This document shows positions 7,853 through 50,620 of a stretch of DNA of 64,000 nt, piece by piece. The stretch is from Candidatus Zixiibacteriota bacterium (GTDB taxonomy: Bacteria > Chloroflexota > Limnocylindria > QHBO01). Location: the NCBI GenBank assembly GCA_035687145.1, contig DASRYM010000039.1, positions 1,219 through 65,218 on the forward strand, written 5' to 3'. The stretch's first letter is position 1, and each line of letters opens with the position of its first letter. A program made the translations under genes and the position numbers. The notes beneath the pieces were generated by a model that saw only the letters and a list, made by a program, of their open reading frames with translations, was not told the origin of the DNA and did no database searches.

Positions 7853-8887
7853 GTGCCGTTCCTGCCGTTCATCGTGCTGCTGGCCTGGCAGGCGCTGAGC
7901 AAGTCCGCTTCCTTCGCGCTGGGCTGGGCCACCGCCCTGTACTTCGGGCAGGTGCCCGGCAAGCAGGGGCGCGTCCTGGCCGTGATGTGCCTGGCCGCCG
8001 CGGCCTGGGTGATCCTGACCGCTGGCTTCGCCGTCCCGCTGCTGGTCGGGGCCGTGCTCGACTTCGCGGGCGTGATCGAGCGCAACTTCACGGTGCAGCC
8101 GCTGCACGCCCTGGGCCTGACGGCCGCCATCGTGCTGACCCCCCCGGCGCTGGCGGCGGCGACGCTGTGGGCCGAGTTCCACGAGGATCGGTCCGTGGGC
8201 GGCTGGCTGCGGCTGGTACCGGCCAGCTACCCGGCCACCGCCTCGCTGGGCGCCGGCGTGCTGCTCATGGTGCTCATCACCCCGGTGGCGCTGGTGCAGC
8301 GCCTGCTCCGCAAGCGCCGCCTGGTGCAGACCGCGGTCTCCATGCGACCCGACAGCAGCGACGACGACCTGGTCGAGGCGGTCGGCGCCGCACTGCGGTC
8401 GCTCGGCATCGAGCGCATTGCGGTCAAGGAGCAGACGGGCTTCCTGTCCTGGCCGATGCGGACCGTCGGCTTCGCCGCCCGCCACCTCATCGGCGCGGTC
8501 GTCCGCGGTGAGCCGATGCGCCTGGAGGCCGATGGCCTGGACCTGTTCGCCTACGCCACCAACGTGTCGATCATCGGTCCCACGGAGAAGGCCTTCCGCG
8601 CGCGAGCCGCGCTGCAGCGCGAGCTGCCCATGGAGCGGGCGCGGATCACCTGGTCGGACGATGCCCAGGAGCTGGAGGACGCCCTGCTCGACGTGCGCCG
8701 GGAGATGAACGGCGACATCGGCGCCCTGCAGGCCAGGCTGGACGAGATCCAGCACCGGATGGACTCCTGCAGCCTGGACCTGGTGGAGTGGAACCTGCTC
8801 TACCGGCTGCGGCTGCAGGTGGAGCGCGAGGGGCTCCAGGTGGCCAGCGGCGGAAGCGGCGGACGGACCAGGCGACGCGGCGGCTGA
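7853..8887 (+). CDS. hypothetical membrane protein
   Basis: GTG start. N-terminal half has several TM helices; C-terminal half is soluble and charged. No family recognised. Codon bias is consistent with a real gene. Confidence 0.45.
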   Translation: MPFLPFIVLLAWQALSKSASFALGWATALYFGQVPGKQGRVLAVMCLAAAAWVILTAGFAVPLLVGAVLDFAGVIERNFTVQPLHALGLTAAIVLTPPALAAATLWAEFHEDRSVGGWLRLVPASYPATASLGAGVLLMVLITPVALVQRLLRKRRLVQTAVSMRPDSSDDDLVEAVGAALRSLGIERIAVKEQTGFLSWPMRTVGFAARHLIGAVVRGEPMRLEADGLDLFAYATNVSIIGPTEKAFRARAALQRELPMERARITWSDDAQELEDALLDVRREMNGDIGALQARLDEIQHRMDSCSLDLVEWNLLYRLRLQVEREGLQVASGGSGGRTRRRGG

Positions 8888-8905
8888 GCCGCTACCGTTT
8901 GGCTC

Positions 8906-9661
8906 GTGCTGCATCCACTCGTCATCTTCGATGCCGGCTTCACCCTGATCCGGCCCCGCGAGACCTTGGCCGATGCCCTGCATCGCGCCCTGAACGACCA
9001 CGGCCACCAGGCCACGATGGATGAGATCCAGCGCGCCTGGGAGGCGGCCGACGCCTGGTTCTGGGAGAACTACCACCGCCCGGACAACCAGACCTGGACG
9101 TCCGACGAGCGCATCGAGGAGACGTGGCGCTCGTACCACCGCCTGATGCTCGACCATCTCGGCGTGCCCGACGTCGGGCAGGAGCTGATGGAGACCATCC
9201 TGGCCGGCCAGTTCTCGCACGAGTCGTGGGAGCCGTACCCGGAGGCCGTCGAGGCGCTGGAACGGGCGCGCGCCGAGGGGTCGAAGGTGGCCATCGCCAG
9301 CGACTGGGGCTCCACCCTGCCGGACGTGATCCGCGGGGTGGGCCTGGCCGACTACATCGACATCTGGGTGGTGTCGGCCATCGAGGGCGTGGCCAAGCCG
9401 TCGCCCGAGTTCTTCCGCCGCGCCGCCGAGCGCGCCGGGGTGCTGCCCGCGCAGGCGGTCATGATCGGCGACAGCTACCGGGCGGACGTGCTGGGCGCCC
9501 GCTCGGCCGGCATGGACGCCGTCCTGCTCGACCGCAACGGGCATGCCGCCGCCGATGTCGAGGGCCCGGTGGCCGACAGCCTGACCGCGGCCCTGGACCT
9601 GGCCGCCTCGCTGGCGGCCGCCCGCGCCGCCGACGCGCCGGCGGACTGGCCGGTACGCTAG
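8906..9661 (+). CDS. HAD family hydrolase
   Basis: VIFDAGFTLI (DxG/D motif I), later SDW...GD motifs. GTG start. Confidence 0.7.
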   Translation: MLHPLVIFDAGFTLIRPRETLADALHRALNDHGHQATMDEIQRAWEAADAWFWENYHRPDNQTWTSDERIEETWRSYHRLMLDHLGVPDVGQELMETILAGQFSHESWEPYPEAVEALERARAEGSKVAIASDWGSTLPDVIRGVGLADYIDIWVVSAIEGVAKPSPEFFRRAAERAGVLPAQAVMIGDSYRADVLGARSAGMDAVLLDRNGHAAADVEGPVADSLTAALDLAASLAAARAADAPADWPVR

Positions 9662-9667
9662 CCGGCT

Positions 9668-10672
9668 TTGGATCCCGCCCTCGAGGCCGCGCCCGAGCCG
9701 CGTGCCGGGCCCGCGCCGCACACCGAGCGCGAGCGCCTGCTGGCCGCCGGGGAGACGCTGTTGGTCACCTTCCTGTGGGCGACCTCCTGGGTGCTGATCA
9801 AGATCGGCCTCGACGACCTGGCGCTGGCGCCGCTCTCCTTCGCCGGCCTGCGCTACGCGCTGGCGGCCCTGATCCTGGCGCCCCTCGGCTGGCGGGCGAT
9901 CCGTGGCGTGCATCGGCGCGGGGAGCGCGGCCCGGACCGGGCACTGGTGGCGCGGGTGGCGGTGATGGGCCTCTTCCTGTACGCCATCGCCCAGGGCGCG
10001 CAGTTCGCCGCCCTGGAGGTGCTGCCGGCGGCATCGGTGGGTTTGGTGCTGGCCACCATCCCGATCTGGGTCAGCGGCGTCTCCTGGCTGCGCGGCGAGG
10101 AGGCCGCCAGCGGGGTGCAGCTGGTCGGCATCGGCATCCTGGTGGCCGGGGCGGTGCTGTACTTCGGCGGCTTCGACCCGGGGCCCTCCGGGCTGGTCGG
10201 CCTGGGGGCGGCGGCGCTGTGCGCCATCGCCTCGACCACCGGCCAGCACCTGTCGCGCGACCTCAACCGTGACGCCCAGGCCCGCCTCGGCGGACCCATC
10301 GGCCTGACCGCCCTGTCCATGGCCGTCGGCGCGGCGCTGCTGCTGGCGGTCGGCGTGGCGCTGGAGGGCTGGCCGGCGCTCGACCCGCGGGGCTGGGCGA
10401 TCGTGGCCTGGCTGGCGGTGGTCAACACCGCCTTCGCCTTCACCGTCTACAACCGCACGCTGCGGGTGCTGACCGCCGTCGAGTCGAGCGTGATCGTCAA
10501 CCTGCTGCTGGTGATGGTGGCGGCCATGGCCTGGATCTTCCTGGACGAGGCGCTCGACCTGCGGCAGATCGCCGGCCTGGCGCTGGCCACCGTGGGGGTG
10601 CTGGTCGTGCAGGTCGGACCGCGCCTCGTGCGCCGCTGGGCGGCCGGGGTGTGCGACAGGTCGGACGGCTGA
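9668..10672 (+). CDS. EamA/DMT family transporter
   Basis: 10 predicted TM helices in two EamA-like halves. TTG start 6 nt after the HAD stop. Confidence 0.7.
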   Translation: MDPALEAAPEPRAGPAPHTERERLLAAGETLLVTFLWATSWVLIKIGLDDLALAPLSFAGLRYALAALILAPLGWRAIRGVHRRGERGPDRALVARVAVMGLFLYAIAQGAQFAALEVLPAASVGLVLATIPIWVSGVSWLRGEEAASGVQLVGIGILVAGAVLYFGGFDPGPSGLVGLGAAALCAIASTTGQHLSRDLNRDAQARLGGPIGLTALSMAVGAALLLAVGVALEGWPALDPRGWAIVAWLAVVNTAFAFTVYNRTLRVLTAVESSVIVNLLLVMVAAMAWIFLDEALDLRQIAGLALATVGVLVVQVGPRLVRRWAAGVCDRSDG

Positions 10673-10761
10673 CGCGGTCCGGCCGGTTTCCGGGCCGGGT
10701 GGTCGGTACCGGCAACCCCGTCCCAGGTGCCGATCGTTCGATGTATCGGTGCGGGTGGGGG

Positions 10762-11625
10762 TCAGGCCGTAACGTCCGCCAGCTCGGGCTCCACGAGCTC
10801 GCCGCTGACCTTGGCCTCGGCGCCCTCGATGATCCGCCGCCGGATCCAGCCCGAGATGGTGTCCACCACGATGGTGGCCCCGATCACCACCAGGATGATC
10901 ATGCCCGCCCGCTCGTGGCGGTTGAAGCTGATGGCCTGCTGCAGGACGAAGCCGATGCCGCCGGCACCGACCACGCCCAGGATGGCCGAGGCGCGGATGT
11001 TGATCTCGAAGCGGTACAGCCAGAAGGCAACGATCTCGGGCAGCACCTGGGGCAGCACGCCCCAGCGCTGCACCTGCAGCGGCCGCGCGCCGGTGGCCCG
11101 CGCCGCCTCCACCGGGCCGGGGTCGATCCCCTCGATCACCTCGGCCGTCAGCTTGCCCAACGTGCCCACCGAGTGCAGCCCCAGGGCCAGCATGCCGGCC
11201 ACCGGGCCGAGCCCGGCGATCGGGATCATGATCGCGATGGCCAGCACCACCTCCGGGAAGGCACGGATGGCGTTGAGCACCTGGCGCATGACGTTCGAGA
11301 CCAGGCCACTGGACACGTTCTTGGCGCCGAAGAACCCGAGCGGCAGCGAGATGATCGCCCCCAGCACGGTGCCCAGCCAGGCGATCTGCAGCGACTCGAG
11401 CATGTAGCCCAGCGCCTCGGGGAAGTAGCTCCACTCCGGGCCCTCGCGCAGGAACATCTCGTAGAACACGAGGCCCACGCCGACCGGCAGACGAAGGATC
11501 TCCCCGGGGTCGAGGTCCACGGTCAGCGCGCAGAGCGCGACCACGACGGCCGCTCCCAGCAGCGCCAGGTTGCGCTTGGCGCGGGAGGGGCGTGCCGGCC
11601 GCGAGCCGGCGGCGAGCGCGCTCAC
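10762..11625 (-). CDS. phnE: phosphonate ABC transporter permease PhnE
   Basis: PhnE-type permease signature ILGVVGAGGIGF. 4-nt overlap with the upstream phnE. Confidence 0.85.
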   Translation of the reverse strand: MSALAAGSRPARPSRAKRNLALLGAAVVVALCALTVDLDPGEILRLPVGVGLVFYEMFLREGPEWSYFPEALGYMLESLQIAWLGTVLGAIISLPLGFFGAKNVSSGLVSNVMRQVLNAIRAFPEVVLAIAIMIPIAGLGPVAGMLALGLHSVGTLGKLTAEVIEGIDPGPVEAARATGARPLQVQRWGVLPQVLPEIVAFWLYRFEINIRASAILGVVGAGGIGFVLQQAISFNRHERAGMIILVVIGATIVVDTISGWIRRRIIEGAEAKVSGELVEPELADVTA

Positions 11626-19287: not shown

Positions 19288-20514
19288 TCAGTCGGGGAAC
19301 GCCTCCGGACCGCGCTCCGACAGCTCTCGCGCGTGCGCGTCCGCGTCCTCCGGCGGCAGCCAGGAGTACGGGTAGCGCTCGTCCTCCAGCTCGGCGGCCT
19401 GGCGGGTGAGGTACAGCGGATGGAAGGTGTCGATCATCACCGCCAGCTCCTCGGTCGCTTCCTTGCCGATGCTGGCCTCCACCGTCCCCGGGTGCGGCCC
19501 GTGGGGGATCCCGGCCGGGTGCACAGTGAAGGAGGCGACGTCCACGCCGCGCCGGCTCATGAAGTTGCCGGCCACGTAGTAGATGACCTCGTCCGAGTTG
19601 ATGTTCGAGTGGTTGTATGGGGCTGGGATGGCCAGCGGGTGGTAGTCGAACTTGCGCGGCACGAAGCTGCAGATCACGAAGTTCCGCGGCTGGAAGGTGA
19701 GGTGCACCGGCGGCGGCTGGTGGATGCGCCCGGTGATCGGCTCGAAGTCGCCGATGTTGAAGGCGAAGGGCCACAGGTAGCCGTCCCAGCCGACCAGGTC
19801 GAAGGGATGGTGCCGGTAGTGGTATGGCGTCACCCGGTCGCGGCTGCGGACCTGGATCACGAACTCGCCCGTCTCCAGGTTGGGCGGCATCTCGTCCGGC
19901 GGGCGGATGTCGCGGTGGTAGTACGGCGAGTGCTCCAGCAGCTGCCCGTACTCGTTCCGGTAGCGGTGGGGCGGCTCGATCTCCGACGGGCACTCCAGCC
20001 ACAGCATGCGCTGCTGGCTCTGGTCATCGGGCACCAGGCGGTAGGTGGTGCCGATGGGGATGACCAGGTAGTCACCCGGGCCGTACGGGATGGGGCCGAA
20101 GATCGTCTCCAGCACGCCTGTGCCGGTGTGCACGAAGTACATCTCGTCGGCCACGCCGTTGCGGTAGTAGGTCTGCATCGGCTCGGCCGGGAGCACGACG
20201 CCGAAGGTGACATCGGCGTTGAAGAAGAGCGGGATGCGCCCGGTCAGGGCGTCGCCGCGCGGCGTCAGGTGCCCGGTGTTCACCAGGTGGTGGCGGTGCG
20301 GCGCCTTGCCCTCCGGGTCTGCCGGCTCGACGACGATCGGCGTCGGCGGGTCGATCTGGTGGGTCTGGGTCGGCGGCGTGTGGTGGTAGAGCAGCGAGGA
20401 GCGGCCGGCGAAGCCCTCCACGCCGAACAGCTCCTCGGCGTACAGGGCGCCGTCCTCGCGGCGGAACTGGGTGTGGCGCTTGTGCGGCACCTGGCCGCGC
20501 TGAACGTAGAACAC
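19288..20514 (-). CDS. hmgA: homogentisate 1,2-dioxygenase
   Basis: 408 aa with the HGD-typical YYRNGVADEMYFVHTGTGVLETIFG region. GTG start with a GAGGA RBS. Confidence 0.85.
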   Translation of the reverse strand: MFYVQRGQVPHKRHTQFRREDGALYAEELFGVEGFAGRSSLLYHHTPPTQTHQIDPPTPIVVEPADPEGKAPHRHHLVNTGHLTPRGDALTGRIPLFFNADVTFGVVLPAEPMQTYYRNGVADEMYFVHTGTGVLETIFGPIPYGPGDYLVIPIGTTYRLVPDDQSQQRMLWLECPSEIEPPHRYRNEYGQLLEHSPYYHRDIRPPDEMPPNLETGEFVIQVRSRDRVTPYHYRHHPFDLVGWDGYLWPFAFNIGDFEPITGRIHQPPPVHLTFQPRNFVICSFVPRKFDYHPLAIPAPYNHSNINSDEVIYYVAGNFMSRRGVDVASFTVHPAGIPHGPHPGTVEASIGKEATEELAVMIDTFHPLYLTRQAAELEDERYPYSWLPPEDADAHARELSERGPEAFPD

Positions 20515-22223: not shown

Positions 22224-23336
22224 ATGAACGCCGAGCCCGCGACCGAGCCCGCTGCCGTGTGCGTCTTCCGGACTGATGCCCACCTGGGCCACGACGGGTT
22301 GATCGAGCTGGTTGCCGGTCGCGAGGTCCCCTGCTGGGAGTCCCCGCGGCGCGCGATGGAGATCGAGCGGGCGCTGCGGGCCCACGGCGGCTTCCGCGTC
22401 CTGGAGCCGCGCGCGTTCGGCCGCGGCCCGATCCTGGCAATTCACGATTCCGAGCTGCTGGACGCGGTCGACCGGGCGTGGACCGATGCCGTGGCCGCCG
22501 GCCACGACCCGTCCCGCGCCTACATCCCGGACACCTTCCGCCTGGACGGCTACGCGGGACCGATGTCGCCGCTGCCACTCCCCGATGCCGCGCACCTGCG
22601 GCTGGGGGCGTTCTGCTTCGACACCGCCACGCCCGTCGTGGCGGGCACGGCGGCCGCGGCCTACGCGTCCGTGGACGTGGCGCTCTCCGCCGCCGCTGCC
22701 GTTGCGGGCGGTGACGGGCCGCTGGCCTACGGGCTGTGCCGGCCGCCGGGGCACCACGCCGCGCGGCGCATGCTGGGCGGCTACTGCTACTTCAACAACG
22801 CGGCCATCGTGGCCGAGTGGCTGCGCCGCGAGGCCGGCGCGCGCCGGGTCGCCATCGTCGACGTCGACTACCACCACGGGAACGGCACGCAGCAGATCTT
22901 CTGGGAGCGGGCCGACGTGCTGTACGTCTCGCTCCACGGCGACCCGGCGCGCGCCTACCCCTACTTCTCCGGATCGACGGCGGAGCGCGGCGGCGGCGCG
23001 GGGACGGGCTTCACCCACAACGTCCCGCTGCCGGCGCGCACCACCGGTGACGCGTACGCGACTGCCCTGGCCCGGGCGCTGGACCGGGTGGCGGCCTTTG
23101 ACCCGGACGCGCCGCTGGTCGTCAGCCTCGGCTTCGACACCTTCGAGCGCGACCCGATCAGCGACCTGGCGCTGACCACCGACGACTACACGGGGGTGGG
23201 TCGCCTCATCGGCCGCACGGCCGCCGCGGGCGGGGCGCGGTCGGTGGTGGCACTCCAGGAGGGCGGCTACGCGCTGGACGCCATCGGCGCCAACGCGGTT
23301 GCCTTCCTCACCGGCCTGCAGGAGGGGCTGCGCTAG
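22224..23336 (+). CDS. histone deacetylase family protein (acetoin utilization AcuC / acetylpolyamine amidohydrolase-like)
   Basis: RPPGHHA and DVDYHHGNGTQ HDAC catalytic motifs. Confidence 0.8.
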   Translation: MNAEPATEPAAVCVFRTDAHLGHDGLIELVAGREVPCWESPRRAMEIERALRAHGGFRVLEPRAFGRGPILAIHDSELLDAVDRAWTDAVAAGHDPSRAYIPDTFRLDGYAGPMSPLPLPDAAHLRLGAFCFDTATPVVAGTAAAAYASVDVALSAAAAVAGGDGPLAYGLCRPPGHHAARRMLGGYCYFNNAAIVAEWLRREAGARRVAIVDVDYHHGNGTQQIFWERADVLYVSLHGDPARAYPYFSGSTAERGGGAGTGFTHNVPLPARTTGDAYATALARALDRVAAFDPDAPLVVSLGFDTFERDPISDLALTTDDYTGVGRLIGRTAAAGGARSVVALQEGGYALDAIGANAVAFLTGLQEGLR

Positions 23337-24766
23337 GACGCGGCCAGGATCTCGGCCAGGCCCCTCGGGTCGATGTTGCCGCCACTGATGACGATCACCC
23401 GGTGGTCATCCCCATCCGGCTGGGGAGCGGTGCCCGACAGGTGGGCCGCCATGGCGGCCGCGCCGGAGGGCTCGACCACCAACCGCGCGCCGGAGGCCAG
23501 GCGGCGGATGGCATCGGTCATGGCCTGCTCGCTGACGGTCACGATCTCGTCCATGTAGCGCCGCAGGTGGACGAAGGGCAGCCAGCCCAGGTGCTCGACG
23601 CGCAGGCCGTCAGCCGCGGTCCGCGTGGTGAGCGACGCATCCCAGTGGACGATCTCGCCGGCGGCCAGCGACTCCCTGGCGTCGGCGGCCAGCTCCGGCT
23701 CGACGCCGATGATCCGCGCCGACGGGACGAGCGACTTCACCGCGGTGGCGATCCCCGCCGACAACCCGCCGCCGCTCACCGGGATGAGCACGCTGGTCAC
23801 CTCGGGCAGGTCCTCGGCGATCTCCAGGCCGGCGGTGCCCTGCCCGGCGATGATCTCCGGGGCGTCGTACGGCTCGATCATCACGTGGCCGCGCTCCTCG
23901 ACGACCTGCCGCGCGACGGCGTGGCGCTCCTCGGACGAGGGGCCGGTGAAGATGATCTCGGCGCCGTCGCGCCGCACGCCCTCGACCTTGATCCGCGGCG
24001 CGCCCTCGGGCATGACGATCACGGCCTTCGTGCCCAGCAGCCGGGCGCAGCGGGCCACTGCCTGGGCGTGGTTGCCGGAAGAGTAGGTGACCACTCCCCG
24101 GGACCGCTCCGCGTCGGACAGCGAGGCGATGGCGTTGTAGGCGCCGCGCATCTTGAAGGCGCCGACCGGCTGCAGGCTTTCCGGCTTGAGCCAGGTGCGC
24201 TCGTCCCAGCGCAGCAGCGGGGTGCGCACCGCCGCTCCCCGGATCCGCTCGGCAGCCTGCCGGATCTCGTCGAGCGTGACCAGCACCAGGCCGTCGAGCT
24301 GGTCGGCATGCTCCTCCAGGTGGGCCACGATGAACTCGTCCACCATCCGCGACACCGGCATCTCCCCGCGGGTGGGGTGGCGCCCGATGATGTCCCAGTC
24401 CTCCGGCTTCAGCTGCTGCAGGACCGATGACACCTGCGCCAGGTCCGCCGTCACTCGCCGCAGCAGCTCCCCGGGTGCTGTCCGCCGTTCGCGCTCGATG
24501 GCCGCCAGCCGGTTGGCATCGGTCTTCACGCGCCCGAACTGGGCCCCTGGCGAGGCGAGGACCGATTGGATCTGCGCCAGCCAGTAGGCCGGGAACTCGG
24601 CCAAGTGGGCCCACACCTGCCCCGCCTCCCAGCGCTCGGAGGCGCCGGGATCCGGATCGCTGAGGCGCGACGGAACGGGCCGCACGGCATGCTCCGCCAG
24701 CCGCCGCTCCACCCGCGCCATGCGTTCCAGGTAGCGCTCCACCTCGGCGCCGCGCGTCGTCGTCAT
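23333..24766 (-). CDS. fusion protein: N-terminal DinB_2/MDMPI-like domain plus C-terminal PLP-dependent threonine/serine dehydratase (catabolic type, no ACT domain)
   Basis: N-terminal 165 aa has DinB-like helices with WAHLAEF and an AHLEEH (HxxxH) motif. C-terminus has the RTPLL...QPVGAFKMRGA Lys-PLP motif and a GGGL loop. No stop or in-frame strong start between the two parts. Confidence 0.65.
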   Translation of the reverse strand: MTTTRGAEVERYLERMARVERRLAEHAVRPVPSRLSDPDPGASERWEAGQVWAHLAEFPAYWLAQIQSVLASPGAQFGRVKTDANRLAAIERERRTAPGELLRRVTADLAQVSSVLQQLKPEDWDIIGRHPTRGEMPVSRMVDEFIVAHLEEHADQLDGLVLVTLDEIRQAAERIRGAAVRTPLLRWDERTWLKPESLQPVGAFKMRGAYNAIASLSDAERSRGVVTYSSGNHAQAVARCARLLGTKAVIVMPEGAPRIKVEGVRRDGAEIIFTGPSSEERHAVARQVVEERGHVMIEPYDAPEIIAGQGTAGLEIAEDLPEVTSVLIPVSGGGLSAGIATAVKSLVPSARIIGVEPELAADARESLAAGEIVHWDASLTTRTAADGLRVEHLGWLPFVHLRRYMDEIVTVSEQAMTDAIRRLASGARLVVEPSGAAAMAAHLSGTAPQPDGDDHRVIVISGGNIDPRGLAEILAAS

Positions 24767-24779
24767 CGGTCCATCCCGG

Positions 24780-25796
24780 TCATCGGTCCATGCGTTCGAC
24801 CACCGGCGAGGTCAGGGCCCCGAGCCGTTCGACCGCCAGCGTCACCTCATCACCGGGCTCCAGCCATCGTCCGAGGGTCTCGTCCTTGATCTCCAGCAGG
24901 CACCCGGTGCCCACCGTCCCGCTGCCCAGGAGGTCGCCGGGCCGCAGCCGGACGTCGGCCGACGCCCGCGCCACCATCTCGCCGAAGCTGAACGCGACGC
25001 TCGCCCACGACCCGCGGCTGGTCTCCACCCCGTTGACCGTGGCGGTCATGGTCAGGTCGTAGCCTTTCCCCTTTCGGGCATCGGCCAGCTCGTCCGGGGT
25101 GACCAGCCATGGACCGATGCTGGTGGCGAAGTCCTTCCCCTTCGCTGGCCCCAAACGGACCGTCGTCTCCTCGCGCTGCAGGTCGCGGGCGCTCCAGTCG
25201 TTCATGACCATGAAGCCGCCGATGGCCTCCTCGCCGCGCTCCGCGTCCAGGTCGCGGACCGGCGTGTCGATCAGGGCCGCCACCTCCAGCTCGTAGTCCA
25301 GTTCGCTCGATGCCTTCGGACGCCACACTGGCTCCCCGGGCCCGCGGATCTCACTGACGTTGCTGAAGTAGAAGATCGGCAGCCGGTACCACGCCTCCGG
25401 CACGGTCCCGCCGCGACGCTCCCACATCGTGCGCACGTGCTGCTCGAAGGCGTAGAAGTCGCGCAGGCTCGGCGGGTTGAGGATCGGCGGCCCGAAGACG
25501 AGATCGGCCGCATCCAGGATCGCCTCATCATCGTCCGACGCGGCCGCGTAGGCCTCCACGATCTCGCGCAGCGCGTCCACCCGCAGCCCCCGTGCCAGGA
25601 GATCGTCCAGGGTGGTCACCGGCTGCCGAAACAGCGCCGAGTTGTGCGGCCGCCGCGGGTCCTCGACCACCAGCCCCCGGCGGACCGCCTCGAGGTCGAG
25701 CCAGCGCCGGGGCGCGTCGCCCCCGTCGCGCGCCACCGCCAGTCGCCACGGCGTGCCGGCCGCGGCGTGGCGCTCGCGAATGTGGGCGACCTTCAT
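24780..25796 (-). CDS. fumarylacetoacetate hydrolase (FAH) family protein
   Basis: 338-aa FAH-fold hydrolase. Probably the fumarylacetoacetase of the homogentisate pathway. Confidence 0.75.
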   Translation of the reverse strand: MKVAHIRERHAAAGTPWRLAVARDGGDAPRRWLDLEAVRRGLVVEDPRRPHNSALFRQPVTTLDDLLARGLRVDALREIVEAYAAASDDDEAILDAADLVFGPPILNPPSLRDFYAFEQHVRTMWERRGGTVPEAWYRLPIFYFSNVSEIRGPGEPVWRPKASSELDYELEVAALIDTPVRDLDAERGEEAIGGFMVMNDWSARDLQREETTVRLGPAKGKDFATSIGPWLVTPDELADARKGKGYDLTMTATVNGVETSRGSWASVAFSFGEMVARASADVRLRPGDLLGSGTVGTGCLLEIKDETLGRWLEPGDEVTLAVERLGALTSPVVERMDR

Positions 25797-25923: not shown

Positions 25924-25981
25924 TCTGGCCTGGGGTGGCCTGCCGGAGACCCGGAGCGGCCACCGCTAGAATCGGTTGAGC

Positions 25982-27004
25982 GTGAAACGGATCGGCTTCC
26001 TGTCGTTCGGCCACTGGTCGGACTCTCCGTATTCGAAGGTGCGCTCGGCGTCTGACGCCCTCCACCAGTCGATCGAGCTCGCGATCGCCGCCGAGGAGCT
26101 GGGCGCCGACGGCGCCTACTTCCGCGTCCACCACTTCGCGCAGCAGCTCGCCTCGCCGTTCCCCCTGCTGGCGGCCGTCGGCGCGCGGACCACGCGAATC
26201 GAGATCGGCACCGCCGTCATCGACATGCGGTACGAGAACCCGTTCTACATGGTGGAGGATGCGGGGGCGGCCGACATCATCGCCAACGGCCGCCTGCAGC
26301 TGGGGATCAGCCGCGGGTCGCCGGAGCAGGTCATCGACGGCTACCGCTACTTCGGCTACATCCCGGCCGAGGGCGAGGACGACGGCGACATGGCGCGCCG
26401 CCACGCGCAGGTCTTCCTGCAGCTCCTATCGGGTGAGGGTTTCGCCGAGCCGAATCCCAGGCCGATGTTTCCCAACCCGCCCGGCCTGCTGCGGCTGGAA
26501 CCGCACTCGCACGGCCTGCGCGACCGGATCTGGTGGGGCGCCGGCTCGAACGCGACCGCTGCCTGGGCGGCCACGCTGGGGATGAACATGATGACCTCGA
26601 CCCTGAAGTTCGACGAGTCGGGGCAGCCGCTGCACATCCAGCAGGCCGAGCAGATCGAGGCCTTCCGCGAAGCCTGGCGGGGGGCCGGCCACCACCGCGA
26701 GCCGCGGGTATCGGTCAGCCGCAGCATCTTCCCGCTGGTCGACGACCGCGACCGGCTCTACTTCGGGCACGGCCGGGAGGACACCGATCACATCGGCTAC
26801 CTGGACGAGAAGACGAGGGCCGTCTTCGGCCGCACCTACGCCGATGAGCCCGATCGGCTGGTCGAGCAGCTGCGCGCCGACACCGCCGTCGCGGCCGCCG
26901 ACACGCTGCTGCTGACCATCCCGAACCAGCTCGGCGTGGACTACAACGCCCACGTCATCGAGTCGGTGCTGCGCTACGTGGCGCCGGAGCTGGGCTGGCG
27001 CTAG
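25982..27004 (+). CDS. LLM class flavin-dependent (possibly F420-dependent) oxidoreductase
   Basis: Luciferase-like monooxygenase fold (VKRIGFLSFGHW...). GTG at 25982 or TTG at 25976. TAGAAT -10-like hexamer directly upstream. Confidence 0.75.
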   Translation: MKRIGFLSFGHWSDSPYSKVRSASDALHQSIELAIAAEELGADGAYFRVHHFAQQLASPFPLLAAVGARTTRIEIGTAVIDMRYENPFYMVEDAGAADIIANGRLQLGISRGSPEQVIDGYRYFGYIPAEGEDDGDMARRHAQVFLQLLSGEGFAEPNPRPMFPNPPGLLRLEPHSHGLRDRIWWGAGSNATAAWAATLGMNMMTSTLKFDESGQPLHIQQAEQIEAFREAWRGAGHHREPRVSVSRSIFPLVDDRDRLYFGHGREDTDHIGYLDEKTRAVFGRTYADEPDRLVEQLRADTAVAAADTLLLTIPNQLGVDYNAHVIESVLRYVAPELGWR

Positions 27005-28140
27005 AGGTTGCCGCGGCGCGCCTGCTCGCGCTCGATGGCCTCGAACAGCGCCTTGAAGTTGCCGACCCCGAAGCCGCGCGAGCCGTGGCGCTCGATGATC
27101 TCGAAGAAGAAGGTCGGGCGGTCCTGCACCGGCCTGGTGAAGATCTGGAGGAGGTAGCCCTCCTCGTCGCGATCGGCCTCGATGCCGAGCTCCTCGAGGA
27201 CGTCCATCGGCACACCGACGTCGCCGACCCGCTCGGGGAGCGACTCGTAGTAGGCGTGCGGCAGGCCCAGGAACTCCACTCCCCGTTCCCGCAGGGCGCG
27301 GACGGTCCCCACGATGTCCTCGGTGCGCAGCGCGATGTGCTGGGTGCCGGCGTCCAGGTAGTAGTCCAGGAACTCCTGGATCTGGCTCTTGCGCTTGCCG
27401 GTGGCGGGCTCGTTGATGGGGAACTTGATGCGGCCGTTCCCGTTCTGCATCACCTTGCTCATCAGCGCCGAGTACTCGGTGTGGATCACCTTGTCGTCGT
27501 AGTGGATGAGCTGGCTGAAGCCCAGGACGTTCCGGTAGAACTCGACAAACCGGTCCATGTCGCCGAGGGCGACGTTACCGACGCAGTGGTCGACCTCCAG
27601 GAGGCTCTGGCCACTCCCCGCCGGCCCGGGATTCCTGATGCGGTGATACCCCGGCGCGAACGTGCCGTGGTAGTCGCGCCGGTCGACGAAGCTGTGGATC
27701 ACCTCGCCGTAGGTGTGGATCGCGCTCTTGCGCAGCACGCCCTTCTGGCCCTCGATGGCCGTCGGTTCCAGGGCCGAGCGCGCCCCGCGTGACGTGGTCT
27801 CGCGCCACGCCGCCTCCACGTCGTCGACGGCGAAGGCGATGTCGTGCACCCCGTCTCCGTGCTTGTGGACGTGGGCCGCGATCTCGCTGTCGGGGGAGAG
27901 GGGCGCGGTGAACACGAATCGGATGTCGTTCTGCACCAGCACGTAGCTGGCGCGGTCACGCACGCCGGTCTCGAGCCCGGCGTAGGCCACCGGGGTGAAG
28001 CCCCACAGGGTGCGGTAGTAGGCCGCGGCCTGCTTGGCGTTCCCCACCCAGAACTCGATGTAGTCGATGCCCTTGAGCGGGAGGAAGTCCTCGTTCTGGC
28101 CCTCGGCGACCGCGTCGGGCTTGACGGCGATATCGGTCAT
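27001..28140 (-). CDS. hppD: 4-hydroxyphenylpyruvate dioxygenase
   Basis: Two VOC modules with the HPPD C-terminal signature FFFEIIERHGSRGFGVGNFKALFEAIEREQ. The ATG at 28140 overlaps the TGA of deoD (ATGA). Confidence 0.85.
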   Translation of the reverse strand: MTDIAVKPDAVAEGQNEDFLPLKGIDYIEFWVGNAKQAAAYYRTLWGFTPVAYAGLETGVRDRASYVLVQNDIRFVFTAPLSPDSEIAAHVHKHGDGVHDIAFAVDDVEAAWRETTSRGARSALEPTAIEGQKGVLRKSAIHTYGEVIHSFVDRRDYHGTFAPGYHRIRNPGPAGSGQSLLEVDHCVGNVALGDMDRFVEFYRNVLGFSQLIHYDDKVIHTEYSALMSKVMQNGNGRIKFPINEPATGKRKSQIQEFLDYYLDAGTQHIALRTEDIVGTVRALRERGVEFLGLPHAYYESLPERVGDVGVPMDVLEELGIEADRDEEGYLLQIFTRPVQDRPTFFFEIIERHGSRGFGVGNFKALFEAIEREQARRGNL

Positions 28141-36440: not shown

Positions 36441-37351
36441 TCAGCGACCGGCCGGCGGCCAACCGCCGGCCCGCCCCACCTTGCTGCCCACCTCCGGCTT
36501 GCCGAGCGCCTTCGCCGCGAAACGCGCGGCGGCCAGCAGCCGGTCCAGGTCCACGCCGTGACGCAGGCCCTGGCGGTCGAGCAGGTAGACGAGGTCCTCG
36601 GTGGCCAGGTTCCCGGCGGCGCCCGGGGCGTACGGCGAGCCACCGGTGCCTCCGGCCGCCGCGTCGAAGGCGGCCACACCCACGTCGAGGGCGGCCATCA
36701 CGTTGGCCAGCGCCGTCCCGCGCGTGTCGTGGAGGTGCAGCGCCACCACCTCCGGACCGACTCCAGCGGCGCCCAGCGCGTCGAGCACGCGCCGCACGTC
36801 GACCGGCGCCGCGACCCCGACGGTGTCCGAGATGGCCAGCTCGTCCACGCCCATGGCCAGCAGCCGCTCGCAGACGCTCACCACTGCCCGCGGGTCGACC
36901 TCCCCCTCGTAGGGGCAGCCGAAGGCGGTGCTCACGTAGGCGCGCAGCCACCAGCCCCGTCTCCGGGCCTCCTCGGCGATCGGCGTGAACTCGGCCAGCG
37001 ACTCGTCGATCCCCATCCCGATGTTGTGGCGCACGTACGACTCGGTGGCCGCGGTGAACAGGCAGATCGCATCGACTTCGGCCGCGATCGCGCGCTCCAG
37101 CCCGCGCGCGTTCGGCACCAGCACCGGGTAGCGGACGCCCGGGCGCCGTTCGAGGCGCGCCATGAGCCCGTCGGCATCGGCCAGGGCGGGGATGGCGCGC
37201 GGCGAGACGAAGGAGGTGGCCTCGATCTCGCGCAGGCCGGCATCGGCCAGCAGGCCGATCAGGGCCAGCTTGTCGTCGGTCGACAGGACCTGGCGCTCCG
37301 CCTGCAGGCCGTCGCGCGGCGCGACCTCGTAGATGCGCACGTCCAGCGCGG

Positions 37352-37355
<4 letters not shown>
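36441..37355 (-). CDS. hydroxymethylglutaryl-CoA lyase
   Basis: YEVAPRDGLQ, HLHDTRG and GGSPYAPGAAGN HMGL motifs. ATGA overlap with the MCC alpha stop. Confidence 0.85.
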
Positions 37356-39448
<2,093 letters not shown>

Positions 39449-39627
39449 GTCGCGATTGTCGCACCGGTGGGCTCCGGCGTTACGGCCGGCAGCGAAGCGG
39501 GCCGGGTTGCGGCGGCGGCGTATCATCCTCACTGCCCCGTCGCGCTGATCGTTGTCCCACCGACAGCGTCTGGCAGCGCGCATACCCGAGCGTGCGCATG
39601 GTCATCTGAATCGCGGGAGGAAGATGC

Positions 39628-42018
39628 ATGCGGAAGGTCCGGAGAGGCTTCAGCCCCCTGCTGCTCCTCGCCTTCGTCGTGACCCTGGCAGCCGCGCCGG
39701 GCAGTGTCCTGGCCAGGCCGAGCGGCCCACCGTTTCTGACCGGTCCCGCCCAGGGGGACGCGGTCGACGTCGTCGTCAACTACCTGCGGGCCAACCACGC
39801 CAAGTACGGCCTGAAGCAGGTCGACGTCCAGGACGTCATCGTCACCGATCGCTACACCTCCGACCACAACGGCGTGACCCACGTCTACCTGCGCCAGGCG
39901 CATCGCGGCATCGGCGTGGTCGGGGCCGCGGTCAACGCCAACGTGGCTGCCGACGGCAGCATCATCAGCCTCAACAGCAGCTTCATCCCGGACCTGCACG
40001 CCAAGGTTCGGGGCGCGGCGGCGCGCAGCGCGGAAGCATCGGTCAGGGCGGTGGCGCGCGGCCTCGGGCTGCACCCGCCGGCGAGCCTGAAGGTCCTCCA
40101 GCACCGCGGTGGCCCGGCGGCCGGGGTGGTCTTCGACCGCAACGGCATCAGCCTGGAGCCGATCACCGCCAAGCTGGTCTACCAGCCCGCCGGCGACGTC
40201 GTGAAGCTGGCCTGGCAGATCGAGCTCTACGAGCCCGATGCCGACCACTGGTGGAACCTTCGCGTGGACGCCACCACCGGCCAGGAGCTGGCCCGGGACG
40301 ACTACGTCAGCCACGCCGACGAGACGTACTCCGTGTTCCCCATCCCCACCGAGAACCCGGAGGAGGCGGGCGGCGTTCGTACCACGGTGACCAACCCGGC
40401 CACCGACGCCTCGCCCCTGGGCTGGGTCACCGCGGGCCAGACCCTCACCATGGGGAACAACGTGCTGGCCTACACCGATCGGGACGCCGACAACGTCCCC
40501 GACCAGGACGGCTTCGCCGACGGTGGGCCGGACCTCGTCTTCGATCCGCCGCTCGACCTGACGCGACCCCCGGTCGAGTACCAGGACGCGGCGGTCACCA
40601 ACCTGTTCTACTGGAACAACGTCATCCATGACGTCACCTACGCCTACGGCTTCGACGAGAAGGCCGGCAACTTCCAGGAGAACAACTTCGCGCCGCAGAA
40701 CGGCAAGGGCGGCGACCCGGTGCGGGCCGAGGCCCAGGACGGCTCGGGCCGCAACAACGCCAACTTCGCCACGCCGCCCGACGGCTTCCGCCCGCGAATG
40801 CAGATGTTCGAGTGGCGCGACTCGGCGCCCAACCCGCTGACGGTCGAGGCGCCCACCGGTCCCCTCACGGTATCGGGACCGATGGCCGGCTTCGGCGCCA
40901 GCCTGGCGACCACGGGGCCGATCTCCGGGACCCTGATGGTGGTGGACGACGGCACGGCCCCGACCAGCGATGGCTGCCAGTCGTTCAGCCTGCCCGGTGC
41001 CCCCGGGTCGGTCATCCCCCTCATCGACCGCGGCGCCTGCACCTTCACCCAGAAGGTGAAGAACGCACAGAACGCGGGGGCGCTGGCGGCCGTGGTGGTC
41101 GACAACGTGCCCGGCGAGGCCCCGTTCGGTATGGGCGGCAGCGACCCGTCGATCACCATCCCGTCGATCATGATCTCGTTCGAGGACGGACAGACGGTGC
41201 GGGCCCTGCTGCCGGCAGCGGCCACCCTGGCGCCGAACCCCGACCTCAAGCCGGATCGTGACTCGGACCTCGACTCCGGGGTGATCATCCACGAGTACGG
41301 GCACGGGGTGAGCAACCGGCTGACCGGCGGACCGGGCACCGTGAACTGCCTGAACAATGCCGAGCAGATGGGCGAGGGGTGGAGTGATTTCCTGGCCCTG
41401 GTGCTCACCGCTCAGGCCGGGGACGAGGACATCGCCCGCGGCATCGGCAACTACGTCATCTTCGAGGACGCGACCGGCGTGGGCATCCGGCCCACACCGT
41501 ACAGCCGCGACATGGCGGTCAATCCCACGACCTACCAGACGGTCATCGACGAGGCGGGGACCACGCTCACCGTCCCGCACGGCGTTGGCTACGCCTGGGC
41601 GACCATGCTGTGGGAGATGTACGGCGCCCTCGTCGACGAATACGGGTTCAGCGGCGACATCTACGCCGACTGGACGGCGGGGGGCAACAACCTGGCCCTC
41701 CAGCTGGTGATCGACGGCATGAAGTTCCAGCCCTGCCAGCCGGGCTTCGTGCAGGGCCGCGACGCGATCCTCCAGGCCGACCAGGCCCTGACCGGCGGCG
41801 TGAACCAGTGCCTCATCTGGGAGGCCTTCGCCAAGCGCGGTCTGGGCTTCAGCGCCAGCCAGGGCTCGCCGATGAAGGTGAACGACGGCCGGGCGGCCTT
41901 CGACCTGCCGGTCGGCTGCGGCGGCGGCAGCGCGGGGGTGGTGCTCCCGCTCGTCCCGGCCGCGCTGCTGGCCGGGTTCGAGCGGCTGCGCCTGCGGCGG
42001 ACGGCTATCCGTCGCTGA
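39628..42018 (+). CDS. M36 family (fungalysin-like) secreted zinc metallopeptidase with FTP and PA domains
   Basis: Signal peptide, HEYGHG zinc motif, EGWSDF, and a C-terminal hydrophobic segment plus RR-rich tail. GGGAGG RBS. Confidence 0.8.
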   Translation: MRKVRRGFSPLLLLAFVVTLAAAPGSVLARPSGPPFLTGPAQGDAVDVVVNYLRANHAKYGLKQVDVQDVIVTDRYTSDHNGVTHVYLRQAHRGIGVVGAAVNANVAADGSIISLNSSFIPDLHAKVRGAAARSAEASVRAVARGLGLHPPASLKVLQHRGGPAAGVVFDRNGISLEPITAKLVYQPAGDVVKLAWQIELYEPDADHWWNLRVDATTGQELARDDYVSHADETYSVFPIPTENPEEAGGVRTTVTNPATDASPLGWVTAGQTLTMGNNVLAYTDRDADNVPDQDGFADGGPDLVFDPPLDLTRPPVEYQDAAVTNLFYWNNVIHDVTYAYGFDEKAGNFQENNFAPQNGKGGDPVRAEAQDGSGRNNANFATPPDGFRPRMQMFEWRDSAPNPLTVEAPTGPLTVSGPMAGFGASLATTGPISGTLMVVDDGTAPTSDGCQSFSLPGAPGSVIPLIDRGACTFTQKVKNAQNAGALAAVVVDNVPGEAPFGMGGSDPSITIPSIMISFEDGQTVRALLPAAATLAPNPDLKPDRDSDLDSGVIIHEYGHGVSNRLTGGPGTVNCLNNAEQMGEGWSDFLALVLTAQAGDEDIARGIGNYVIFEDATGVGIRPTPYSRDMAVNPTTYQTVIDEAGTTLTVPHGVGYAWATMLWEMYGALVDEYGFSGDIYADWTAGGNNLALQLVIDGMKFQPCQPGFVQGRDAILQADQALTGGVNQCLIWEAFAKRGLGFSASQGSPMKVNDGRAAFDLPVGCGGGSAGVVLPLVPAALLAGFERLRLRRTAIRR

Positions 42019-42043
42019 CGCTGCCTCTCTCCTCCGGACCGAT

Positions 42044-42075
42044 GACGAGGCGGCCGCTCCGGCGGCCGCCTCGTC
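42044..42075. terminator. perfect 14-bp-stem hairpin (GACGAGGCGGCCGC tccg GCGGCCGCCTCGTC) between the convergent peptidase and ECH genes
   Basis: Inverted repeat seen directly. Likely a bidirectional intrinsic-type terminator without a U-tract. Confidence 0.5.
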
Positions 42076-42081
42076 GGGTGC

Positions 42082-42882
42082 TCAGTCCGGGGCGCGCTCC
42101 ACCGACCAGGACGCGCGGCGCTTGTCGAGGAAGGCGGTCAGGCCCTCCTGGCCCTCGGCGCTCACCCGCTGGCGGGCGGCGACGCGCACCGCGTGGGCCG
42201 CGAACTTCCCGGACGGCAGGTCCCGCCAGACGCGGATCAGGAGCTTGGCCTGGCGCACCGCGTTCGGGCCCGCGGCCAGCAGCTCGCCGAGCAGGGCATC
42301 GACCCGCCCGTCCAGCGCGGTCTCGTCCGGCAGCACCTCGTGGACCAGGCCGATGCGCAGCGCGCGCTCCGCGCCGAACCGCTCCCCGGAGAGATACAAC
42401 GCCCGCGCCTGCCCCTCCCCGATGCGGGGCAGCACGAACGGGCTGATCACCGCCGGCAGGATGCCGAGCTTGACCTCGGTGAAGCCGAAGCGGGCATCGG
42501 CGGTGGCCAGCACCACGTCCGACACGGCGCAGAGCGCCATGCCGCCGCCCAGCGCCGCGCCCTGGACGCGGGCGATCACCGGCGCGGGGCACTCGTCGAT
42601 GGCCCGCAGCATGGCCTGCAGCCGCGCCGCGTCGGCCTCGTTCTCCTCCAGCGTGAGGTGCAGGGCAGCCCGCTGCCAGTTGATGTCGGCCCCGGCCGAG
42701 AAGACCGGTCCCTCGCCGGCCAGCACCACCGCGCGCATCCGCTGCGCCGGCTCGCGGGCCAGGGCGGTGAAGGCGTCGTGCAGCTCCCCGATGAGGGCGG
42801 CGTTGAACGCGTTGCGCACCTCGGGGCGGGCGAGCGTGACCCTCGTGACGGGACCGTCACGCTCGACGCGCAGGGCCGCCAT
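42082..42882 (-). CDS. enoyl-CoA hydratase/isomerase family protein (possibly methylglutaconyl-CoA hydratase)
   Basis: Crotonase fold with the AALGGGMAL oxyanion region. Start overlaps the upstream gene's stop by 1 nt. Confidence 0.8.
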   Translation of the reverse strand: MAALRVERDGPVTRVTLARPEVRNAFNAALIGELHDAFTALAREPAQRMRAVVLAGEGPVFSAGADINWQRAALHLTLEENEADAARLQAMLRAIDECPAPVIARVQGAALGGGMALCAVSDVVLATADARFGFTEVKLGILPAVISPFVLPRIGEGQARALYLSGERFGAERALRIGLVHEVLPDETALDGRVDALLGELLAAGPNAVRQAKLLIRVWRDLPSGKFAAHAVRVAARQRVSAEGQEGLTAFLDKRRASWSVERAPD

Positions 42883-49186: not shown

Positions 49187-50620
49187 CTACCCGATGCGAA
49201 TGGTCTCGATCGCCGGCCGATAGGGTACAGGCCGCAGCCGAGCCGCCAGGGCCAGGACCAGGGTGATCGGGCCCAGCCTGCCGACGAACATGCCGATGAT
49301 GGCGATCACCCGCGCCGGCTCGTCCAGCCCCGGGGTGATGCCGGTGGTGGCCCCCACCGTGCCGAAGGCGGAGACCGCCTCGAAGAGGGTCTGCAGGAAG
49401 GTGGCCTGCGAGGTGACCGCCAGTCCCAGGCCCACCAGGAAGACGAAGGCGATGGCCAGCAGCGCCACCGACAGGGCGCGGTAGACGACCCCGTGCGGGA
49501 TGCGCCGGCCGAAGACCTCGGCCGAGGGGCGGCCGCGGACGCTCGACCAGATGACGGCCCCCAGCAGGCCGAAGGTGTTGACCTTGATGCCGCCGGCCGT
49601 CGACCCCGACGCGCCGCCGATGAACATCAGGGCCATGACCACGAACAGCGAAGCCTCGGCGAAGTTCGCCGGACTGAGGGCGGTGAAGCCGGCGGTGCGC
49701 AGCGTGGCCGACTCGAAGGCGGCGTTCAGGATGCGCTGCTCGGCCGGCAGCCGGCCAAGGGTGGTCGGGTTGTTCCACTCGATCACCGCGATCAGCACCG
49801 TCCCGGCCAGCAGCAGCCCGGCGCTGACGGTGAGCACCAGCTTGGTCTCCAGCGCCAGGCGCCGCCAGGAGCGATGCCGTCCGACGTCGCCGACGATCGC
49901 CCAGCCCAGCCCGCCGAGGATGAGCAGCACCGCCACCGTGCTCAGCACCACCCAGTCGTCGATGAAGGGGGTCAGGCTCCGGTAGCCGCCGGTCAGGTCG
50001 AAGCCGGCGTTGTTGAAGGCCGACACCGCGTGGAAGACGCCCCACCAGATCCCTTGTGGGTGCCACGGCGGGCCCGCCTCCGGCCCGGCCATGAAGGCGA
50101 CCGACAAAACCACCGCCCCGGCCAGCTCCACGACCAGGGTGAAGGCCGCGATGCGGATGGCCACCTGGGTCACGCTGCCCAGCTCCAGCCCGCCCAGGGA
50201 CTCCTGCACCACCACCCGGTCGTGGAGGCGGGTGCGGCGCCCGGCGATCAGGTAGAGGAGCAGGGTCGAGCCGGTCATGATCCCGAAGCCGCCGACCTGG
50301 ATGAGGAGCAGGATCACCACCTCGCCGAAGGCGCTCCAGTGGGTGGCGGTGTCGACCACCACCAGCCCGGTGACGCAGACCGCCGAGGTGGCGGTGAAGA
50401 GCGCGGTGAGCGGGTCGGTGCCGCGGCCCGGCTCGGTGGCCCAGGGCAGCAAGAGCAGGACGGTGCCGGCCGCGATCATGACCACGAAGGCCACCAGCAG
50501 GGTCCCGGCCGGGGAGAGCGGCCGCCGCGCCCGCCGCGCCGGCTTGAGCGCCACCTCCTCGGGCCGGATGCGCGTGACGCGGACCCGGCGGTCGCCGGGA
50601 CGCTGCCCCTGGACCGTCAT
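49187..50620 (-). CDS. trkH: TrkH/KtrB family potassium transporter
   Basis: Polytopic protein with repeated GFGIMTGS / AGF selectivity-filter-like segments. Confidence 0.85.
   Translation of the reverse strand: MTVQGQRPGDRRVRVTRIRPEEVALKPARRARRPLSPAGTLLVAFVVMIAAGTVLLLLPWATEPGRGTDPLTALFTATSAVCVTGLVVVDTATHWSAFGEVVILLLIQVGGFGIMTGSTLLLYLIAGRRTRLHDRVVVQESLGGLELGSVTQVAIRIAAFTLVVELAGAVVLSVAFMAGPEAGPPWHPQGIWWGVFHAVSAFNNAGFDLTGGYRSLTPFIDDWVVLSTVAVLLILGGLGWAIVGDVGRHRSWRRLALETKLVLTVSAGLLLAGTVLIAVIEWNNPTTLGRLPAEQRILNAAFESATLRTAGFTALSPANFAEASLFVVMALMFIGGASGSTAGGIKVNTFGLLGAVIWSSVRGRPSAEVFGRRIPHGVVYRALSVALLAIAFVFLVGLGLAVTSQATFLQTLFEAVSAFGTVGATTGITPGLDEPARVIAIIGMFVGRLGPITLVLALAARLRPVPYRPAIETIRIG

Follow-up and report, generated by a model that had tools for sequence, protein, structure and literature searches.

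The window analysed here is a stretch of 64,000 nucleotides (72% GC) from contig DASRYM010000039.1, and the subject of this work is a minus-strand open reading frame (ORF) within it, at positions 23333..24766, which starts with ATG and encodes 477 amino acid residues followed by a stop codon. The product joins an N-terminal DinB/YfiT-fold domain (residues 1–165, 24272..24766, minus strand) to a C-terminal fold-type II pyridoxal phosphate (PLP) enzyme domain (residues 166–477, 23333..24271, minus strand), and the exact protein is found in NCBI as HET6380293.1, named "threonine/serine dehydratase". The N-terminal 165 residues are proposed to be the maleylacetoacetate cis-trans isomerase of a homogentisate pathway free of glutathione S-transferase (GST)-type enzymes, because the DinB subfamily to which they belong is tied to homogentisate-pathway genes and occupies the slot of the missing step. 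In the same explanation the C-terminal 312 residues would be an independent serine-racemase or serine/threonine (or beta-hydroxy-amino-acid) ammonia-lyase with intact catalytic residues, and the fusion product would be a co-expressed polypeptide of two autonomous enzymes and no coupled bifunctional catalyst. The probability of this explanation as a whole was put at about 0.6. The initial annotation of the window had suggested the DinB domain as the missing isomerase; comparative genomics places the subfamily in the isomerase position of homogentisate operons, and the suggestion is well supported by this context.

The two-domain architecture was recovered in full. Pfam searches with the complete ORF product showed DinB_2 (PF12867) at residues 42–156 with 30.5 bits (gathering cut-off 24.8), a score that rose to 33.4 bits when the N-domain was searched alone, and PALP (PF00291) at residues 179–462 with 245 bits. 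The motifs on which the initial annotation relied were all present, as WAH54LAEF, H149LEEH153 and FK205MRGA. The GC content at third codon positions was 0.94 over the ORF, similar to that of the adjacent genes. An identical DinB+PALP architecture was found in more than 120 database proteins of 467–490 residues, the close relatives being 73–90% identical and containing both domains, and the frame was uninterrupted in 37 independent species loci; the fusion is therefore no assembly or annotation artefact. The junction was also scanned for an internal start, and no stop codon, Met codon or well-placed Shine-Dalgarno sequence was detected, which disposes of the earlier reservation that the two halves might be separate genes. 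An AF2 model of the full-length protein had a pLDDT of 79. The second ORF of 477 residues in the window (49187..50620) encodes a TrkH transporter and is unrelated to the fusion.

All close relatives of the fusion protein come from Candidatus Limnocylindria/Chloroflexota metagenome-assembled genomes (MAGs), and the host is therefore placed, by protein similarity, among the Limnocylindria-type Chloroflexota and not among the actinobacteria. The NCBI record HET6380293.1 belongs to a MAG labelled "candidate division Zixibacteria"; all close homologues and the conserved 20-kb synteny are of Limnocylindria/Chloroflexota, and the contig is probably mis-binned or mislabelled. The rationale first offered for the isomerase, drawn from mycothiol-dependent enzymes of glutathione-free actinobacteria, has to be abandoned, since mycothiol cannot be assumed in a chloroflexote.

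The genomic context of the DinB domain was compared in 80 species-level genome loci, all of them Limnocylindria/Chloroflexota MAGs, by mapping the window proteins onto each locus and classing the DinB units as fused or standalone according to the positions of stop codons. The DinB::PALP fusion was present in 37 of these loci and a standalone DinB gene of about 165 codons in 40, the remaining three being cut by a contig end; the same fusion, which the initial annotation had proposed to look for in other genomes, is thus found in 37 species loci, all Limnocylindria/Chloroflexota. Directly upstream of the DinB unit in the window lies a gene for a fumarylacetoacetate hydrolase (FAH)-family protein of 338 residues (24780..25796, minus strand; PF01557, 176 bits). 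The two are adjacent in 77/77 loci with upstream sequence, where fused and standalone DinB units alike start at the FAH stop codon or overlap it, typically by 4 nt as ATGA. Further upstream the window contains a true 4-hydroxyphenylpyruvate dioxygenase (HPPD) gene, as initially annotated (27001..28140, minus strand; TIGR01263, 428 bits versus 277), whose ATG overlaps the stop codon of the upstream PNP gene, again as ATGA. Downstream, a gene for a divergent homogentisate dioxygenase (HGO)-like cupin of 408 residues was located at 19288..20514 (minus strand), and its counterpart lies within 10 kb of DinB in 28 of the 32 loci with full flanks.

Two of these neighbours, which had been named simply hmgA and FAH hydrolase, were kept with reservations. 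The HGO-like protein scored 28 bits with TIGR01015, far below the cut-off of 510, and aligned with residues 287–455 of human HGO (E = 1e-3) over the PYxH(S/R)N and HP...PHGP motifs, a stretch that holds the active-site His/Glu/His motifs with the iron-binding residues. Its orthologues gave weak matches to PF20510 (HgmA_N) and 28–56 bits with TIGR01015, and the family is assumed here to be homogentisate dioxygenase. The FAH-family protein belongs to the FAA_hydrolase family and is adjacent to the DinB unit as described, and it scored 77 bits with the fumarylacetoacetase equivalog TIGR01266, below the cut-off of 375.3; it contains the C-terminal FAA_hydrolase domain only, and its first 110 residues or so matched no Pfam family. 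A better score was obtained with L-2,4-diketo-3-deoxyrhamnonate hydrolase (94 bits in NCBIfam; 78 bits to PDB 8gsr). Its substrate may be fumaryl- or maleyl-acetoacetate. In agreement with the initial annotation, no GST/MaiA-type domain was detected in a scan of 48 ORFs, which took in all of the window but a few ORFs, most of them longer than 500 residues, and the thioredoxin-like GST_N/GST_C fold was not found in the fusion protein itself.

The same DinB family was found in homogentisate-pathway operons of other phyla. In one locus (L084) an AsnC regulator gene precedes the order HPPD, HGO-like, aminotransferase, FAH and DinB. In two Acidimicrobiales loci (L089 and L090) phenylalanine hydroxylase and AsnC genes are followed by HPPD, a 543-residue HisC-type aminotransferase::DinB fusion, fumarylacetoacetase and the HGO-like gene. 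The fumarylacetoacetase of these loci has both N- and C-terminal domains and reaches the TIGR01266 cut-off (375.7 bits versus 375.3). In the fusion (L089 7227–8858, L090 765–2396; database proteins P0133, P0144 and P0152, annotated as "histidinol-phosphate transaminase") the DinB domain is at the C-terminus of the HisC-type class I/II aminotransferase, and this fusion is independent of that with PALP. The DinB start overlaps the HGO stop codon in L093, and FAH-DinB pairs are present in L083 and L091. In a distant Acidimicrobiia member (L087, 34% identity, 8001–9330) the HGO-like gene is 4.4 kb downstream; a PIG-L/LmbE-family gene begins 1 nt after DinB, and since this superfamily includes the thiol-conjugate amidases or deacetylases MshB, Mca and BshB, its position could be a hint of thiol-conjugate chemistry. 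No informative gene context was found around the DinB gene of L092. The HGO-like family of 390–410 residues accompanies the DinB family through Chloroflexota, Dormibacterota-like and Acidimicrobiia loci (outside the window, for example, L084 6639–7799, L089 10017–11189 and L093 5778–7001), with 48–73% identity. In the tyrosine operons outside Limnocylindria every step from tyrosine to fumarate and acetoacetate has a gene except the isomerase, and DinB is the sole enzyme without an assigned step. The PALP subfamily of the fusion was absent from the tyrosine operons of the non-Limnocylindria phyla compared.

The family was then defined from its sequences and predicted fold. A search with the N-domain alone against 1.8 billion cluster representatives returned 516 clusters, mostly of standalone proteins of 160–175 residues. 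In an alignment of 41 family sequences W46, H54, R86 and H153 were invariant, and E57, W62, G78-R79, H130, G134, H149 and Q156 nearly so; ten signature residues checked in 40 fused and 42 standalone Limnocylindria copies showed no variation. His54 (codon at 24605..24607, minus strand), in the WAHLAEF motif, is the predicted first metal ligand; it is invariant in 41/41 family members and 82/82 Limnocylindria copies, and it aligned with a His of BH0186 (PDB 2rd9). The predicted second and third ligands are His149 and His153, separated by three residues in HLEEH (24308..24322, minus strand), which are conserved and aligned with "HDLTH" of 2rd9. The segment FGR79...R86 (24509..24532, minus strand) contributes two conserved arginines that may bind the carboxylates of a dicarboxylate substrate.

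The AF2 model of the N-domain, built with 41 homologues, was a four-helix bundle with a pLDDT of 93 and a pTM of 0.87. Foldseek comparison of this model with the PDB gave DinB/YfiT structures as all of the top matches, the best being YfiT (1rxq, TM-score 0.75), with BH0186 also among the best; TM-scores were 0.67–0.68 for the mycothiol-dependent maleylpyruvate isomerase (MDMPI) and 0.68 for the mycothiol S-transferase of Mycobacterium tuberculosis. Sequence identities in the matches to DinB structures of the YfiT and mycothiol S-transferase type were 11–19%. With a family profile the only profile-level match in the PDB was BH0186 (2rd9, E = 7e-6), in which the His triad and the histidine of an "HP" motif were aligned. 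Fluoroacetate dehalogenase, the sole phmmer match among PDB sequences (E = 0.005), was weak and was judged spurious.

The initial annotation had described the N-domain as MDMPI-like. Of this description the DinB/YfiT fold and the kinship with thiol-dependent enzymes, MDMPI among them, were retained; the query did not match the MDMPI_N or TIGR03083 models, it has no second domain of the MDMPI C-terminal type (standalone members end at 161–171 residues, and in the fusion PALP follows directly after residue 165), and its triad is His/His/His. Within the family DinB_2 was matched by 33 of the 41 members, and MDMPI_N and TIGR03083 were matched weakly by 14 and 7 of them, respectively (best E = 5.9e-7). 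NCBIfam contains no specific model for the subfamily, and its members are annotated in the source databases as "hypothetical" or "DinB family protein". On account of the DinB_2 placement, the weak MDMPI_N/TIGR03083 affinity and the lack of an NCBIfam model, the N-domain is assigned, at the level of sequence, to a distinct and unnamed DinB subfamily outside the MDMPI family proper. W46, H54, E57, W62, FGR79, R86, H130 and H149xxxH153 are its candidate marks. Three further architectures were observed among its members, DinB+hemerythrin (P0127, 338 residues), DinB+GNAT acetyltransferase (P0129, 418 residues) and an 834-residue protein (P0234) with DinB followed by FAA_hydrolase_N and FAA_hydrolase, the last being either a real fusion or a frameshifted call.

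Among characterised enzymes the closest system is MDMPI (NagL2) of Corynebacterium glutamicum (PDB 2nsf/2nsg; TIGR03083, PF11716). It has the DinB-type four-helix metal-binding domain in common with the N-domain and, with the help of a thiol, converts a maleyl-keto-acid from cis to trans in the step that precedes an FAH-family hydrolase, as is proposed for the DinB unit. It differs in possessing a C-terminal domain, whereas the DinB unit is a single domain of 165 residues, in acting on maleylpyruvate where maleylacetoacetate is the substrate predicted here, and in using mycothiol, which is not expected in the chloroflexote host. Its metal ligands, reportedly His/Glu/His in the 2007 structure paper, also differ from the His/His/His triad of the DinB unit. 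The YfiT/BstA bacillithiol S-transferases, BH0186 and the M. tuberculosis mycothiol S-transferase are, like the DinB unit, single-domain DinB folds of about 165–175 residues with a His triad; these enzymes act as conjugating transferases and are not associated with homogentisate genes, whereas the present subfamily has its own invariant residues and FAH/HGO synteny. The GST-zeta enzymes MaiA, HmgC and GSTZ1 (EC 5.2.1.2) share with the DinB unit the predicted reaction, the pathway and the operon position, but have an unrelated thioredoxin-like GST fold and are glutathione-dependent and metal-independent.

By analogy with MDMPI and GST-zeta, a divalent metal bound by His54, His149 and His153 would place the thiolate of a low-molecular-weight thiol, which would add to the cis double bond of the cis-enedione maleylacetoacetate while Arg79, Arg86 and His130 held the carboxylates. 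Bond rotation and elimination would then yield fumarylacetoacetate, to be cleaved by the FAH-family hydrolase encoded immediately upstream and translationally coupled to the DinB unit. The reaction itself, the part played by a thiol, the metal and the function given to the arginines are all inferred.

The PLP domain has the characteristics of a complete enzyme. It aligned end to end (E about 1e-62) with the serine racemases of maize and Schizosaccharomyces pombe (5cvc and 1v71, E about 1e-63) and with TdcB (2gn0), in keeping with a serine-racemase or serine/threonine dehydratase type. Lys205 (codon at 24152..24154, minus strand), the predicted Schiff-base lysine in FKMRGA, aligned with FKFRGA of the S. 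pombe enzyme, in which K57 is the corresponding residue. The domain also retains the SSGNHAQ carboxylate loop (S229-S230-G-N-H), with the serine that typically provides the second base in serine racemases, the GGGG phosphate loop (G332-G334) and Glu356 and Asp362 at the positions of the racemase Mg site. Lys205 and the rest of this catalytic set were invariant in 45 fusions. The best NCBIfam score was with threo-3-hydroxy-L-aspartate ammonia-lyase (NF005454, 303.9 bits versus a cut-off of 452), followed here by NF005600 (272 bits versus 496), and none of the equivalog cut-offs for threo-3-hydroxy-L-aspartate or threonine ammonia-lyase was passed. The PLP Lys, SSGNHAQ, glycine loop and Mg ligands are those of serine racemase, TdcB and threo-3-hydroxy-L-aspartate ammonia-lyase, whose characterised members, unlike the fusion, have no N-terminal DinB enzyme. 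The domain would deaminate, and possibly racemise, an amino acid of the serine/threonine type independently of the DinB domain.

A neighbour-joining tree of DinB domains placed the fused copies, that of the window included, in one clade nested inside the standalone copies, which argues for a single fusion event. In unfused loci the PALP orthologue, when present, is 70–74% identical and stands by itself some kb upstream; none of the unfused PALP genes checked has a DinB N-terminus of its own, and they start with "M...LVTI.DIR.AAERIRG". At the fused junction, "...HADQLDGL(V/E)LVTLDEIR", the DinB C-terminus abuts a nearly complete PALP N-terminus with no linker. The fusion thus arose once, in one Limnocylindria sub-lineage, out of a PALP gene and a DinB gene that had been separate: a single rearrangement brought the FAH-DinB pair to a position immediately ahead of PALP, and loss of the DinB stop codon joined the two head to tail. 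Mean DinB identity within the clades was similar, at 68% for fused and 71% for standalone copies, and both halves remain under constraint. One unfused Limnocylindria MAG (L067) has tandem DinB copies after FAH, at 10001–10486 and 10498–10956, which are 58% and 53% identical to the domain of the window.

Several observations weigh against an isomerase function. The assignment rests on genomic context and fold, and the N-domain lacks any match to the MDMPI models, as noted above. Two distant family members (L087 and L092) have no adjoining FAH gene. The search for a GST-zeta maiA covered 48 ORFs of the window and not the whole genome. The local FAH is short and non-canonical and could act on maleylacetoacetate as it is, in which case no isomerase would be needed; some Bacillus species are reported to have a maleylacetoacetate hydrolase activity, as cited in PMC4457819. 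Characterised single-domain DinB proteins are S-transferases, not isomerases (PMC10950700), and YfiT/BstA and the M. tuberculosis mycothiol S-transferase are among the best structural matches. These points could be accommodated if DinB were a thiol S-transferase or a protective accessory enzyme, for instance one that conjugates or reduces the benzoquinone-acetate formed by auto-oxidation of homogentisate, with the short FAH acting on maleylacetoacetate itself. This alternative, the main rival, was considered unlikely. The partner in Acidimicrobiales is a bona fide fumarylacetoacetase, an enzyme that requires the trans isomer, and the translational coupling to FAH or HGO together with the aminotransferase fusion points to a core step of the pathway and not to a scavenger of side products.

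A different function has to be weighed for the fusion as a whole. The initial annotation had raised the idea of a novel bifunctional enzyme, and the PLP domain might make 4-hydroxyphenylpyruvate from a beta-hydroxy aromatic amino acid, thereby standing in for the missing aminotransferase, or supply or recycle the thiol cofactor. No aminotransferase gene is found near the Limnocylindria cluster, whereas in other phyla one is present in the operon or fused to DinB; strict conservation of the two domains has continued since they were joined; and the PALP orthologue is kept in the HPPD-FAH neighbourhood, within 10 kb, in 8 of 20 unfused Limnocylindria loci, which leaves room for some functional link. 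Coupled catalysis was nevertheless judged quite improbable. The PALP subfamily does not extend to the tyrosine operons of other phyla, the genes are separate in about half of the Limnocylindria species, and the junction has neither a linker nor a novel interface element. Moreover, serine-racemase and dehydratase chemistry needs a beta-leaving group, which tyrosine does not have. The single fusion event, the catalytic residues kept by both domains and the PLP partner lying outside the conserved set elsewhere speak for two autonomous enzymes, and the joining to the dehydratase-like enzyme is apparently incidental. EgtB and OvoA offer a precedent for a DinB_2 domain linked covalently to another enzyme domain (EgtB 4x8b, TM-score 0.52 with Foldseek); in EgtB the DinB and FGE-like domains form one active site, whereas the domains of the present fusion go back to two enzymes that were autonomous, and no sign of a common active site was seen. 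The database name of the whole protein, and the regulatory extensions that many threonine dehydratases have, could also be taken to mean that DinB serves the dehydratase as a non-catalytic, ACT-like extension for regulation or oligomerisation, unless two genes have been read as a single ORF. Either is very improbable and already contradicted by the comparative data: the ancestral DinB gene is standalone and coupled to FAH, not to PALP, its predicted metal triad does not vary, nor do other residues, and all 37 species have an uninterrupted frame, with no start signals at the junction. The preferred reading thus remains that of a DinB isomerase carried on one polypeptide with an independent PLP enzyme.

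Some further features of the window were recorded. A perfect 13-nt direct repeat of period 17, GTCATCGGTCCAT on the plus strand, covers the FAH stop codon as well as the beginning of DinB (24762..24791). It has the appearance of a short tandem duplication in which the ancestral ATGA overlap of stop and start was copied; the two genes are 13 nt apart, with a 6-codon remnant ORF (M T G M D R *), where the relatives have a 4-nt overlap. A gene for a luciferase-like monooxygenase (25976–27004, plus strand) stands between HPPD and FAH in the window and in part of the related loci; in others, for example L001 and L002, HPPD is followed directly by FAH. At a greater distance, an HMG-CoA-lyase-like gene (36441–37355, minus strand) and an enoyl-CoA hydratase gene (42082–42882, minus strand) flank two large ORFs (37352–39583 and 39628–42018). 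The genes from 36441 to 42882 may form a cluster for leucine or ketone-body catabolism, perhaps with a bearing on what becomes of acetoacetate.

Of the steps in the homogentisate pathway, only that of maleylacetoacetate isomerase has no identified gene in glutathione-lacking bacteria. Glutathione-independent isomerase activity was reportedly described in Gram-positive bacteria in the 1980s. For Bacillus anthracis, a glutathione-free bacterium, no isomerase gene could be identified, and the gap is documented (PMC4457819). A full-text search of a literature library revealed no paper in which a maleylacetoacetate isomerase was assigned to a DinB protein. The odds somewhat favour the view that the DinB subfamily of about 165 residues is a new, glutathione-independent family of maleylacetoacetate isomerases, unrelated to GST, in Limnocylindria, Dormibacterota-like lineages and Acidimicrobiia. 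It would then account for an activity that has lacked a gene in bacteria free of glutathione. The subfamily has been captured twice in fusions with PLP enzymes, by a HisC-type aminotransferase in Acidimicrobiales and by a serine-racemase-type dehydratase in Limnocylindria.

The standalone DinB family is the more interesting object. The dehydratase fusion matters less, as a clean and datable stop-codon-loss fusion of two autonomous enzymes, and is the reason why the whole protein bears the wrong name of threonine dehydratase. If the assignment is true, DinB-type thiol-dependent isomerases would extend from the gentisate to the homogentisate pathway, and annotators would gain a marker with which the tyrosine pathway could be completed in Limnocylindria, Dormibacterota and Acidimicrobiia, lineages abundant in soil. 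The family would also offer a defined protein with which to find the low-molecular-weight thiol used by these uncultured phyla.

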